DNA from: a virus
Taxonomy: Duplodnaviria; Caudoviricetes
Virus record (IMG/VR): IMGVR_UViG_3300021167_000382
Span: 64,001 to 128,000 of that record
Length of the DNA: 64,000 nucleotides
Strand: one strand, 5' to 3'
Shown here: positions 6,314 to 32,359 of the stretch, one piece after another
Position numbering within the stretch: position 1 is the first letter of the stretch
Layout of the letters: every line of letters begins with the position of its first letter
Translations under genes and position numbers: made by a program
Notes under the pieces: model-generated
What the model saw: only the letters and a program-made list of their open reading frames with translations
Told to the model about the DNA's origin: nothing
Database searches by the model: none

Positions 6314-6365
6314 TTTAAATCTCCTAGTAATTCATGGGTGGGATATTAACATATCCAGGGACACT

Positions 6366-6385
6366 TTAAATATACATGAGTGAGA
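6366..6385 (-). promoter_or_regulatory. Putative early promoter, copy 2
   Basis: Core ATATACATG at 6370-6378, ~57 bp upstream of the ATG at 6313. Confidence 0.72.
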
Positions 6386-6404
6386 TTTTTTAGATGCGTA
6401 AGAA

Positions 6405-13459: not shown

Positions 13460-14299
13460 TTAATCAGAGGGTAAAGAAACCAGATGCTCAGATTCAATTT
13501 CATTCTGAGCGATATGCGACTGAACACGAACTTCCCGAGCACGAAGGAGTCTATCCAACGTGATCTTACGTAAAGTCATGCTCTGTATTTCAAGATCACT
13601 ATTCTGCTGACCACGCCGAGCACCTGAGGTAGCTAGGTATCTACGACGGTTGGATTTGAGTTCTCGATCGATCGTCAATATCCGATCACACCATGCGGAC
13701 AGAACCTCGTCCTGGTTCGTATTCTGGTTATATCGAACCGATTCATGGAGTGTGTAAAGCCAGTAAGAGCCATCGTCCATACGTTTGAATAAGTGCACAT
13801 GTGCTTTATTGGAGATGGGGAAACGAGACGACTTTAAATAGAGTTCAAGTTCTGGGCAGTGGAGCATTTTAAATTTGTTTTCGGTATACTCAACTGCGGT
13901 GCTGTCGATAATATAAAAGCGCTGTGGATCTTGGTGTTTCTGGAACTGAGGTCGATTGATCCGTTTCTGACGAAAGTCATTCCACTCGCTCAGCCAACTT
14001 ACTAGAATACCCTTCAATATTCCAGGCGTCAACAACCCTTCCTCAAATGGAGGATAGTTGGATTCATTCATGAACTTCAAAGTCTCACGTTCAAGTTCCT
14101 TCAACGTGAAAGTCTTTGCTCGTGCTAAATCATCCGCATAGTACTTTGTTAGCATGAGTAGATGGTTGGCAATCATCCGTGCCATGCTAAAGAAACGTTC
14201 CAATGCAGCGATTTGTATCGAGTCCATTTCCAAACGTATCGCTCGATAGTGGACATGGAGAAAGACCTTCTCCTTATCCATGTTAGATGTTTCCATCAT
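13460..14299 (-). CDS. TnpB (IS605 OrfB)-derived protein lacking the RuvC nuclease domain
   Basis: RAIRLEMDSIQIAALERFFSMARMIANHLL aligns by eye to TnpB RLYPN..Q..L...LG.ARFVYNH.L. RPQFQK matches FPRFRK, and KRMDDGSYWLYTLHE matches RRxxxGxYxxSVLCE. No GxDxG, no E/D catalytic motifs and no Zn finger. Confidence 0.72.
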   Translation of the reverse strand: MMETSNMDKEKVFLHVHYRAIRLEMDSIQIAALERFFSMARMIANHLLMLTKYYADDLARAKTFTLKELERETLKFMNESNYPPFEEGLLTPGILKGILVSWLSEWNDFRQKRINRPQFQKHQDPQRFYIIDSTAVEYTENKFKMLHCPELELYLKSSRFPISNKAHVHLFKRMDDGSYWLYTLHESVRYNQNTNQDEVLSAWCDRILTIDRELKSNRRRYLATSGARRGQQNSDLEIQSMTLRKITLDRLLRAREVRVQSHIAQNEIESEHLVSLPSD

Positions 14300-14400
14300 C
14301 AATATCCTTTCAACTTGTATTCGTGTTCATTTCAAATAACTCATCGTTCACGGTTAATCTATCTAAGAAGATAGCAGAGATCGCTACCCATCGGTTCATG

Positions 14401-17446: not shown

Positions 17447-19714
17447 TTGACCATTCTCTTTGCTGAAGATTTTGAAAAGAAACACCCGTCGGCAATCGTG
17501 GACTATAAGACAAAAAATGAAGACTTTGTTCGCCTAGCTGCCCTCTATAACAAGATGGGTGTTCCGCATGCGGGTCGAATGATTCTATCGTTGCATGACA
17601 GAGATTTGCAAGGTATCGATCCTTTCAATCCGCCGGATGCTGAAACCGCCCTTCGGATCAGCTTGGAATGTAAGGATAACTTTTGGTATTTTATTCGAGA
17701 GATTGCTCGAGACCCTGCAGGCAGTGACGACTTTCCTATTCTATTCAAACCGAATCGTGGTGTGATTTCAGCCTACTGGTTGTATTTCAACCATATTGTT
17801 TTCTTCCTGATCATGATTCGACAAACCGGTAAATCCTTCGGTATTGACTGGCTCTATATCTGGTTGATGAATATCGGTACAACAAAGTATGAAATCGCAC
17901 AGCTCACGAAGGATGAAAAACTTCGTTCTCGTGAACTAGAACGTCTGAAGGCAATGGAACTCACGATGCCTTCCTACTTGAAGATGCGACATGACCGAGA
18001 TCCAGGTAATACGGAAACGATGCGAGTGTCTCGTCTTGAAAACTACTTTAAGTCCTATTTGCCTAATAAATCCCCAAAGATCGCTGACATGGTCGGTCGA
18101 GGGATGACTGCTTCAACGGCAGGTGTGGACGAACTTGCTTATATCTTTAACAACCATATCACTGTGCCCGTGATGCTATCTGCAACGCTCGCGGCACGTG
18201 AGGTATCTCGTATGAAGGGTGAGCCTTACGGGACCATCTTTACGACAACCTCTGGCAAACGTGATACGCCTGAAGGCAGATACGCTTATCGACTCGTCCA
18301 TGAATCAGCCGTTTGGTCTGAGCAGTTTATGAATGCAAGGAATCTCCAAGAACTTGAGAAGATCATTCTGAATGCTTGTCCAGGTGATGCACGCGGTGAG
18401 AAACGACTCCATGTCAACTGTACCTTCAACCATCGACAACTCGGTAAGACTGATGAATGGCTTAATTCACGCTTGAAGGAATCCATTCAAGAAGATCCGA
18501 CACAGATGCAGGCCGACTACTTCAACATGTGGCCGTCCGGTACAACCGCTTCTCCTTTTACTCGTGAAATCGCTGAACTGATTCGTCAAAGTGTTGTGGA
18601 AGATCACTATACACAAATCGACGGTGCTGATATGTATGCGCTTCGTTGGTATTATCCTGAGTCTGATATCGACGGTCTTATGGAACGCTACGATCACATC
18701 CTTTGTATTGACTCCTCTGACGCTATCGGTCGAGATGCGTTAGGCGTTAATCTAATCAACATCACCACTGGGGAAGAAGCCATGGCTGCTACTGTCCCTA
18801 AAACAAACCTGATTACTTTTGCTAAATGGGTTTGTGATTTCCTGGAACGGCATCTTAAGGTAGTCTTGATCGCTGAACGTCGTGGTAGTGGGCAGACGAT
18901 CACGGATTATCTCTTACTCTATCTTCCAGCCAAAGGTATCGATCCCTTTAAGAGAATTTACAACACCATCGTTCAGGAAGCGGATGAATATCCTGACCGG
19001 TTCAAAGAAATCCAGAACCCCTATGCAGCGGGTGAAGATATCTACACGAAGTACAAGAAGTGTTTTGGTTGGGCAACCTCCGGCGGCGGGACGACCTCAC
19101 GAGGTGACCTCTATAGCAAGACACTTTCCATAGCCACACGAATGGGTGGTAGTGTGATTCGAGACAGCATACTTGTACTCCAGTTACTAGGACTAACTAT
19201 TCGAAATGGCCGGATCGATCACCAGGAAGGTGAGCATGACGATATGGTTGTTTCATGGCTGCTAGGATGGTGGCTAATGACCAATGGTCGTAATCTTCAC
19301 TACTATGGACTGAATCCTCAGAGCATTCTTTCTAATAACGCCACAGTACTTCAAGAACGTAAAACCAAGACCACTTATGATCTCTATCATCAGAAAGTAG
19401 CAATGGATGCGGTTAAGCGACTTAAGGAACTGTTGGAATCTGAAACTGATCCATATGTAATTCGACGGTATGAATCAGATCTTGAACGTGCTGTATCTTT
19501 ACTCACTGTTGAAGATCGACAGATCATCGCTGCCGACGATCTATTACAACAACTCCGTGAAAAACGAAATGAAGCTTTCCGTCCCTCTATGGGCAGCGAG
19601 GCTTCTAACTACTTACAGCAGGCATTATCGAATTATCCTAACATGTATAATGCTGGAAGCTATGGTGGCGGTAACTATGGTTCTGCTGTTTTCTCGAGTG
19701 ATATGTATTTATAA
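17447..19714 (+). CDS. terL: Terminase large subunit (phiKZ gp25-like)
   Basis: Walker A MIRQTGKS, Walker B GVDE, coupling motif FTTT, nuclease motifs CIDSSDAIGRD and HDDMVVSW. Confidence 0.92.
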   Translation: MTILFAEDFEKKHPSAIVDYKTKNEDFVRLAALYNKMGVPHAGRMILSLHDRDLQGIDPFNPPDAETALRISLECKDNFWYFIREIARDPAGSDDFPILFKPNRGVISAYWLYFNHIVFFLIMIRQTGKSFGIDWLYIWLMNIGTTKYEIAQLTKDEKLRSRELERLKAMELTMPSYLKMRHDRDPGNTETMRVSRLENYFKSYLPNKSPKIADMVGRGMTASTAGVDELAYIFNNHITVPVMLSATLAAREVSRMKGEPYGTIFTTTSGKRDTPEGRYAYRLVHESAVWSEQFMNARNLQELEKIILNACPGDARGEKRLHVNCTFNHRQLGKTDEWLNSRLKESIQEDPTQMQADYFNMWPSGTTASPFTREIAELIRQSVVEDHYTQIDGADMYALRWYYPESDIDGLMERYDHILCIDSSDAIGRDALGVNLINITTGEEAMAATVPKTNLITFAKWVCDFLERHLKVVLIAERRGSGQTITDYLLLYLPAKGIDPFKRIYNTIVQEADEYPDRFKEIQNPYAAGEDIYTKYKKCFGWATSGGGTTSRGDLYSKTLSIATRMGGSVIRDSILVLQLLGLTIRNGRIDHQEGEHDDMVVSWLLGWWLMTNGRNLHYYGLNPQSILSNNATVLQERKTKTTYDLYHQKVAMDAVKRLKELLESETDPYVIRRYESDLERAVSLLTVEDRQIIAADDLLQQLREKRNEAFRPSMGSEASNYLQQALSNYPNMYNAGSYGGGNYGSAVFSSDMYL

Positions 19715-19739
19715 TTTTTATACAAGTCACTTATAATGT

Positions 19740-19954
19740 GGTTGTGAGACCAGGAACTCGGTGTGATAATGTATCATATCGGGCTTGCGAGCCATTTGAC
19801 CATGCCCGCTGCGCTGCAAGCGTAAGTCCACAAGACTGAAATCTTGCAATATGTGAAACGTCTTTGGGTGGGGATTGATCACACGGCCTATCCAGGCCAT
19901 AGCGGGTACAGTGTCGCGCTGCATGAATGGGGAGGGCTTCGGCCCTCCCTTTTT
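19740..19954 (+). ncRNA. Candidate multibranch structured ncRNA with its own terminator
   Basis: TATAAT at 19732-19737; nested stems with GNRA-type loops; closes with GGGAGGGC-TTCG-GCCCTCCC-TTTTT. Confidence 0.55.
19930..19954 (+). terminator. Intrinsic terminator
   Basis: 8-bp GC stem, UUCG loop, U5. Confidence 0.85.
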
Positions 19955-19983
19955 CCGTCTAACTGAAAAAAGAAAAGAAGAAC

Positions 19984-20017
19984 ACCAGAGAGCACGGCTG
20001 ATGCCGTGCTCTCTGGT
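19984..20017 (-). terminator. Intrinsic terminator of the minus-strand accessory operon
   Basis: 15-bp stem followed by a U-rich minus-strand tail. Confidence 0.8.
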
Positions 20018-20022
20018 AGCTA

Positions 20023-20442
20023 TTACTTCAGCAGTTCTTTCAGCTTGGTAAAGCGTTCGTTGTCCCTGCGATTGATTTCATCTCTCACAGTCACACCGGC
20101 TTTATTTGCCATCTTCAGAATATGGTTCGACCACTTAGGAGAATAGCCGAGATCATTCCCGGTGCGGATAGCGATATGCGCTACCGTATCCCCGTTATCA
20201 TCGACATACTCCCAAGCATTGAAGTCATCAGACAGATGGCCAGTTGCTGCCGCAGCATGAGCGACTGTCCAGTTCGTCTCATCACAGATACCCCAGAACT
20301 CAAAACCATTTTTAGGTTTGTAGTGTTGAACATAGTAATGAGCGATGGTCCAACCACATTCATCCGTTAAGAGCATCTCCCGAACATTCGGTACCCGTTG
20401 TTTGAGAGAGTGAAGCACATGTTCATAAGACATTGAAACCAC
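20023..20442 (-). CDS. Ankyrin-repeat protein
   Basis: Repeats DECGWTIAHYY, DETNWTVAHAAAATGH, DDNGDTVAHIAIRTG and NKAGVTVRD fit ankyrin D..G.TPLH.A...G. Confidence 0.72.
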   Translation of the reverse strand: MVSMSYEHVLHSLKQRVPNVREMLLTDECGWTIAHYYVQHYKPKNGFEFWGICDETNWTVAHAAAATGHLSDDFNAWEYVDDNGDTVAHIAIRTGNDLGYSPKWSNHILKMANKAGVTVRDEINRRDNERFTKLKELLK

Positions 20443-22821: not shown

Positions 22822-22869
22822 AATAAATCTCCTGAAATAAATAAGGATACAAAGGTATCCAAGCTCAGG

Positions 22870-22890
22870 TTAGATATACATGAGTGAAAA
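22870..22890 (-). promoter_or_regulatory. Putative early promoter, copy 4
   Basis: Minus strand TTTTCACTCATGTATATCTA; core at 22874-22882. Confidence 0.75.
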
Positions 22891-32257: not shown

Positions 32258-32311
32258 TTTGAATCTCCTAGTTTGTGGTCATGAGGGATACTAAATGTAT
32301 CCAGGGACATG

Positions 32312-32332
32312 TTAGATATACATGAGTGAAAG
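32312..32332 (-). promoter_or_regulatory. Putative early promoter, copy 5
   Basis: Minus strand TTTCACTCATGTATATCTAA; core at 32316-32324. Confidence 0.75.
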
Positions 32333-32359
32333 ATTTCAGAAGAAGAAAAATAAACATGG

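Follow-up and report, generated by a model that had tools for sequence, protein, structure and literature searches.

We analysed a stretch of 64,000 nucleotides (hereafter the window) taken from an IMG/VR virus record, of which it covers bases 64001-128000. The record is 210 kb long, carries direct terminal repeats and has an estimated completeness of 78%. The feature under study adjoins terL, a late-type + strand gene for a 755-aa large terminase (17447..19714; PHROG phrog_2, E 1.2e-34), with its stop codon at 19712-19714 and a product that is colinear with 15 homologues to the last residue. Because this terminase matches those of Ralstonia phage RP12 (41% identity) and phiKZ (gp25, 36% identity) over nearly its full length (tblastn, 95-97% of length), we assign the genome to an uncultured phiKZ-like jumbo phage, which is probably nucleus-forming. 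DNA near-identical to this phage (37-74% of sampled words) was found in metagenome runs from 11 studies, with source labels spanning wastewater, digester, landfill, aquatic and freshwater-sediment metagenomes. None of these runs is recorded as RNA; four of them were compared with the window, as contigs. ARAGORN found no tRNA or tmRNA gene anywhere in the 210-kb genome, and a tRNA-free genome is unusual for a jumbo phage.

The terL stop codon is followed by approximately 215 non-coding bases, a + strand terminator, a separate minus-strand terminator and a convergent ankyrin-like gene. The minus-strand terminator (19983..20018, terminator prediction) belongs to the convergent operon and lies outside the candidate RNA, while the 139-aa ankyrin-repeat-like gene (20023..20442, minus strand; Pfam Ank_4, E 5.5e-7) forms the right border of the post-terL slot, as its homologues also do in three related loci (L003, L049 and L050). 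Homologues of terL are present in the protein database at 95, 85, 81, 78 and 77% identity (P0002, P0003, P0005 and P0006 being those at 95, 85, 78 and 77%). Several homologues (P0007, P0008, P0017, P0033, P0037, P0043 and L003:3004-6003) are 250-330 aa longer and carry a Hint/intein domain (PF13403), so that inteins are gained and lost among these terminases; the window terL has none. The most variable part of terL among strains is its low-complexity C-terminal tail (19660-19714), where 3 nt are deleted at 19663 and bases are substituted at 19675, 19684 and 19688-19690; a single nucleotide is inserted immediately past the stop.

Every string that the original prediction had quoted from the non-coding stretch is present where it was placed in the window sequence. 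A TATAAT (19732-19737, + strand) stands before a short hairpin with a GNRA loop, P1 (UGGUU-GUGA-GACCA, 19739..19752; GGTT-GTGA-GACC at 19741-19752). When modelled from 19739, the RNA is predicted to open with this 5'-terminal hairpin and to continue with P2, a 12-bp hairpin with a 3-nt loop (19757..19783, model pair probability 0.96), and then a modelled multibranch domain (19786..19923). The outer part of this domain is a modelled interrupted long-range stem (19786-19801 with 19911-19923), inside which a 9-bp stem visible in the sequence as well as in the model (TGCCCGCTG/TAGCGGGTA, 19803-19811 with 19900-19908, with G-U at 2 of its 9 pairs) closes three hairpins (19815-19848, 19852-19883 and 19885-19898, GGCCT-ATCC-AGGCC). 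The 3' end of the unit is an intrinsic terminator, GGGGAGGGC-UUCG-GCCCUCCC followed by U5 (19929..19955, hairpin 19929-19950), with a GC-rich 9-bp stem and a UUCG loop. The model assigns pair probabilities of 0.8-0.96 to the 12-bp hairpin and to the 9-bp stem with the three hairpins that it closes. Two further long-range stems had been proposed, CCATT/AATGG and AGTCC/GGATT; both can be drawn on paper and neither is used in the predicted fold, the former competing with the terminator.

The original prediction had also described the stretch as a multibranch RNA candidate that is GC-richer than its flanks. The whole 223-nt stretch does fold with a z score of -3.52, but the 189-nt body without the terminator (19738-19926) reaches only z = -1.16, with 27/200 dinucleotide shuffles folding as well, and ranks 977/6616 among GC-adjusted 190-nt windows of the genome, where a window holding both terminators ranks second. 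The fold of the body is thus not beyond chance and is ordinary for this genome. The GC excess is likewise marginal (0.45-0.53 vs. 0.39-0.50 in the flanks) and comes mostly from the two terminators. The claim that the stretch holds no convincing ORF did hold up, as we found no conserved frame, no Pfam or PHROG match for any small ORF in the unit and no ORF common to the window unit and its counterparts in relatives. A 65-aa minus-strand ORF was rejected, having no Shine-Dalgarno (SD) sequence, no counterpart in relatives and no homologue among 5.8 billion proteins.

A scan of JGI metagenomes yielded two relatives, L049 and L050, with terL 81% and 73% identical to that of the window (tblastn). 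In both, terL is separated from a + strand terminator by a non-coding unit that equals the window's in length. All three loci share a conserved 5' handle (19730..19756, + strand), consisting of CTTATAATG, hairpin P1 and AGGAA, in which approximately 25/28 bases are identical to L050/L049. The common 28-nt form reads CTTATA(A/C)T(G/A)TGGTTG-loop-AGACCAGGAA, that is, a TATAAT or TATACT, a GGTTG-loop-GACC hairpin and then AGGAA, with a GAAAA loop on the same P1 stem in L049 and L050. For comparison, 53% of third codon positions in terL differ between the window and L049, and the intergenic sequence that precedes terL shows no conservation at all. The motif occurs once in the 210-kb genome. We regard the handle, with its 5' stem-loop and SD-like AGGA, as a candidate site at which the RNA is started or processed.

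Comparing the two relatives with each other allowed selection on the sister unit to be measured against its surroundings. Only 30/237 non-coding sites differ between L049 and L050 (12.7%), compared with 29-49% of flanking third codon positions, namely 142/362 in terL (39%; Fisher p = 5e-13 vs. the unit), 39/80 in the last 80 terL codons and 39/134 in the downstream gene. The substitutions also respect base pairing. When L049's 27 substitutions were placed on a fold computed from L050 only, 1 pair was broken vs. 9.5 expected if the substitutions are relocated at random (0/5000 permutations), with 2 compensatory changes; the reciprocal test on L049's fold gave 4 broken pairs vs. 8.0 expected (p = 0.03), and the minus strand showed no such signal, with 10 vs. 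8.9 and 6 vs. 9.6 expected (p = 0.055). RNAalifold predicted 68 pairs for the two sequences, of which 2 are compensatory, 5 are changed on one side and none is broken, and the one-sided changes from G-U to G-C or A-U fit the + strand only. A GAAA-receptor-like CCUAAG in L050 we attribute to chance, since it is not kept in L049. Because both the preservation of pairs and the G-U changes are specific to the + strand, we conclude from this pair of sequences that the L049/L050 unit is under purifying selection as a constrained + strand RNA structure. A recent recombination tract could in principle also lower the divergence, but it would have to coincide exactly with the non-coding part, which we judge less probable than purifying selection.

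These patterns bear on two other ways of reading the locus. Under the first, the stretch would act at the level of DNA, for example by marking where packaging starts or by serving as a target for recombination or homing, as its position adjoining terL, its cassette-like exchange and a nearby mosaic boundary (see below) might suggest; the pair preservation and its strand-specific, G-U-dependent character point to RNA instead, the unit is absent from most relatives with the same terminase, and we consider a DNA signal highly improbable. Under the second, the stretch would be a micro-peptide expression cassette in which a hairpin is followed by an SD-like AGGA and, 7-8 nt further on, by a start codon, a spacing that is kept in both lineages and a layout that echoes promoter-hairpin-RBS cassettes elsewhere in the genome. 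In the window this cassette would encode 20 aa from a GTG at 19763, 7 nt past AGGA, and in the relatives the 7-codon mini-ORF MTPLSFT (L049:6318-6341 and L050:1140-1163), 8 nt past AGGA, within which the two differences between L049 and L050 are both synonymous. The peptides are however very short and bear no relation to each other, the P2 stem of the predicted fold hides both starts, one of the synonymous changes is also matched by a compensating change on the other side of the predicted RNA stem, and a one-base difference in the handle loop between the window and L049/L050 means that the frame through the handle is not kept. Some 150 nt of constrained downstream sequence would also go unexplained, and we therefore hold a micro-peptide cassette to be very unlikely.

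Beyond the handle, the window body and the L049/L050 body cannot be aligned, with a global alignment score equal to the shuffled mean, although homologous bodies would be expected to differ by only approximately 20% at the measured level of constraint. Covariance models of the two bodies each fail to find the other. The simplest reading of non-homologous bodies behind a shared handle is body replacement with the handle kept, and to judge from these alignments the window unit's body was probably swapped relative to L049/L050.

In three other strains of the window phage, the unit is nearly unchanged, with two substitutions that are both compatible with the structure: 19772 T>C touches only the loop-closing pair of P2, and 19929 G>A replaces a G-U pair of the terminator with A-U. 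The unit thus has 2 changes in 217 nt, whereas the last 215 nt of terL have 7 together with an indel; this difference is no more than a trend (p = 0.10). In runs X17, X14 and X15, the match to the window ends at approximately 19970 and is followed by a complete change of sequence, the replacement resembling the sequence that L049 has around the minus-strand terminator. This switch indicates recombination at the edge of the unit, with a mosaic junction between the two convergent terminators (window 19956-20022) as read from the run sequences.

The ordinary fold of the window body, its lack of relationship to the body in L049 and L050, and the mosaic junction in other strains would all be compatible with a functionless spacer or recombination scar, in which only the handle and terminators matter and the stems are typical of any 190 nt at 52% GC. 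Against such a reading stand the clear constraint on the sister unit, the trend toward fewer changes in the unit than in the end of terL, and the rarity with which phage genomes keep 190 nt of filler; we consider it quite unlikely for the window version. Conservation beyond the neutral rate was observed for the L049/L050 unit and the shared handle, with the lineage of the window body offering 2 substitutions only, and the evidence for selection and pairing, which comes from a non-homologous body, carries over to the window by analogy of position, size and handle only. We regard the stretch in the window as a real non-coding feature and probably an RNA.

The post-terL slot proved to be variable among relatives. 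A gap of the size of the unit was found in only 3/26 relatives (L049, L050 and the distant locus L007). In most of the others, including one at 66% terL identity and RP12, terL ends within 75 nt of the next feature; in these two (the former being L003), the terL stop leads directly into a terminator or the next gene, with the unit absent. In two relatives at 56% terL identity, the slot holds a gene for a MazG-like nucleoside triphosphate pyrophosphohydrolase (L024:5200-5517 and L002:5313-5726; phrog_4856, E 6e-10 and 3e-13), and we rejected the idea that the unit is a decayed MazG gene, there being no residual similarity. The corresponding slot in phiKZ (L057:3649-4246, after PHIKZ025) spans approximately 600 nt to the convergent gene PHIKZ023 and is loosely packed: its annotation shows two tiny ORFs, of 42 and 46 aa, and leaves a gap of 210 nt. 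On these comparisons, the unit is best read as an accessory element. A packaging-associated RNA, which the original prediction had entertained, is argued for by position alone, and most terL relatives do without the unit.

We also searched for matches to known RNA families. The stretch had been described as unmatched to tRNA, tmRNA, group I intron or hammerhead, and our searches agree: Rfam 15 covariance models (including group I/II introns, hammerhead and other small ribozymes, Phage_pRNA, 6S, Y RNA and IS605/HEARO-type RNAs) gave no match at gathering score in the 64-kb window, and ARAGORN found no tRNA or tmRNA in the window, L049 or L050. Relaxing the Rfam threshold to E <= 10 for the window and L050 returned only terminator-driven sRNA and miRNA noise far below gathering score, so that the Rfam comparison, proposed at the outset as a check on novelty, revealed no known family. 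A group I intron was rejected on genomic grounds as well, as the terL frame is intact to its own stop and the downstream genes lie on the opposite strand. Sequence searches with the unit found no match among 50,697 phage records (blastn) and only terminator-like fragments at 47 terL loci (nhmmer and blastn). Exact-pattern scans gave no match for the handle in IMG/VR and GTDB genomes or for pieces of both bodies in IMG/VR, and a terL-guided scan of GTDB genomes returned only an unrelated 23% match.

Three more specific RNA identities were considered: a guide or partner RNA of a nuclease-less TnpB-like protein, a self-cleaving ribozyme, and a phi29-type packaging RNA. In their favour are just the suggestion of the original prediction and the presence of the TnpB-like gene (13460-14302, minus strand) 5.4 kb from the unit. 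The omega-RNA (reRNA) of TnpB lies at or overlaps the 3' end of tnpB at the right end of the transposon and is co-inherited with the protein. The unit is instead non-adjacent to the TnpB-like gene, on the opposite strand and not co-inherited with it: two genomes that encode the protein, G001 and G002, have no unit after terL, the RNA model of the unit (of low sensitivity, as it was built from a single sequence) finds nothing in either, and no copy was detected anywhere in the 217-kb record of G002. The partner idea thus fails for want of co-occurrence. A phi29-type pRNA has the Phage_pRNA fold and belongs to phi29-like phages whose packaging ATPase needs it, whereas here there is no Rfam match, the large terminase is of the classical type, and most relatives are without the unit. 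The lack of any family match even at E <= 10 likewise speaks against a ribozyme, an intron or a pRNA, and we find this whole group of identities barely credible.

How the unit would be transcribed was considered in relation to the motifs of the genome. The recurrent early motif of the phage, TCACTCATGTATAT, has at least 8 sites in the window and is absent at the unit. A recurrent promoter-like motif, (T)CATGTATAT(C/T)TAA, occurs upstream of minus-strand genes at 1848, 6370, 14405, 22874, 32316, 33484, 37345 and 60519, with more copies outside the window. Three minus-strand cassettes that carry the early motif (6314-6390, 22822-22890 and 32258-32335) have a GGATA...TATCC hairpin and then an AGGAG box behind it. 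By analogy, this motif resembles the AT-rich early promoters of phiKZ-type phages. Late promoters of phiKZ need TATG, of which the G is the start (PMC4666361). In L049, a TATGG is positioned such that the RNA would open with the hairpin, while the window and L050 have TGTGG, and TATGG is not enriched in intergenic DNA of the window genome. A sigma-70-like TTTATA-18-TATAAT is present before the unit; we rejected it as a promoter, as its -35 element is not kept in relatives and phiKZ-type phages transcribe independently of host polymerase (PMC4666361). By analogy with the late ncRNAs of phage PAK_P3 (see below), the unit may be cut from the terL transcript, or it may be started at the handle.

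The position of the unit directly after the terL stop and on the same strand, the terminator that follows it, and the lack of a recognisable phage promoter motif would also suit a purely cis-acting 3' untranslated tail of the terL mRNA that tunes stability or timing and yields no separate RNA product. We consider such a tail unlikely: most relatives, including the one at 66% terL identity and RP12, do without it, and it would leave unexplained both the retention of 25/28 handle bases in front of a replaced body and the constraint over the whole 180-nt body in L049 and L050.

Taken together, the unit at 19739-19955 (+ strand) is best explained, with moderate confidence and on the strength of sequence comparison, as a lineage-specific, non-coding, terminator-bounded RNA unit, appended 3' to the late transcription unit of terL. 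It lacks coding capacity and ends in a same-strand intrinsic terminator, as the L049 and L050 units also do, features it shares with terminator-bounded phage sRNAs (3'UTR-derived or stand-alone), which form a functional class rather than a sequence family. An unrecognised structured RNA, as originally proposed, is therefore still the best reading, by way of the selection and pairing in L049/L050 and the conserved handle rather than by way of the window unit's own fold.

In the mechanism that we propose for this RNA unit, the candidate RNA would be released from, or started just after, the terL mRNA at the conserved handle, and the 5'-terminal stem-loop and terminator hairpin would protect its two ends. 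The folded body would act in trans as an accessory RNA, possibly in a protein-binding or decoy role, and would constitute exchangeable cargo behind a fixed handle, given the lack of homology between the window body and that of the relatives. Protein binding or a decoy role appears likelier than antisense pairing: nearly all of the body is paired, and its longest complement elsewhere in the phage genome is a 14-nt palindromic piece of a terminator. We infer that an accessory slot with an exchanged body suits such an RNA more than it would a core packaging factor or a regulator acting by antisense. In a bolder and rather unlikely version, the post-terL slot would be a plug-in site in which the fixed 28-nt handle drives unrelated folded bodies of approximately 170 nt, swapped by recombination and serving as RNA cargo for counter-defence or host manipulation, the RNA equivalent of protein 'moron' cassettes.

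To our knowledge, the cataloguing of small RNAs of lytic jumbo phages has just begun, and we know of none with a known function. Within the window genome itself, the closest parallel is with the promoter/leader hairpin/RBS cassettes, which like the unit combine a short conserved upstream motif, a 5' hairpin and a purine-rich AGGA(G) box with unrelated cargo; they differ in using the early motif and in preceding real protein genes, whereas the unit has another motif and hairpin and no credible ORF. Among described systems, the virulent Pseudomonas phage PAK_P3 produces two late, 3'UTR-derived RNAs, ncRNA1 (~210 nt) and ncRNA2 (~120 nt) (PMC10914365). Like the unit, these are non-coding, ~200 nt in size and located 3' of an upstream gene without a clear promoter of their own; they are made late, as the unit would be, and have no assigned function. 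They belong to another phage family, with no sequence or family relationship to the unit, and were demonstrated by RNA-seq and northern blot, whereas the unit is known from its sequence alone. Small RNAs have also been described in the chimalliviruses phiKZ and 201phi2-1, such as sRNA005/sRNA-gp182 and 3'UTR_PHIKZ298, in a group that transcribes with its own RNA polymerases (PMC11512511, PMC10914365). These come from the same broad phage group and are likewise short, terminator-bounded and conserved only among relatives; unlike the unit, they are mostly 5'UTR-derived products of premature termination, and none has been reported after terL.

The unit thus joins, as a further candidate, the lineage-specific sRNAs already described from lytic and jumbo phages. 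Its layout is unusual in placing a short, strongly conserved 5' handle before non-homologous, individually constrained bodies, in a slot that elsewhere holds a MazG-like gene. If confirmed, this arrangement would provide a defined handle for finding further such RNAs, and would suggest that these phages exchange RNA cargo as they do accessory protein genes.
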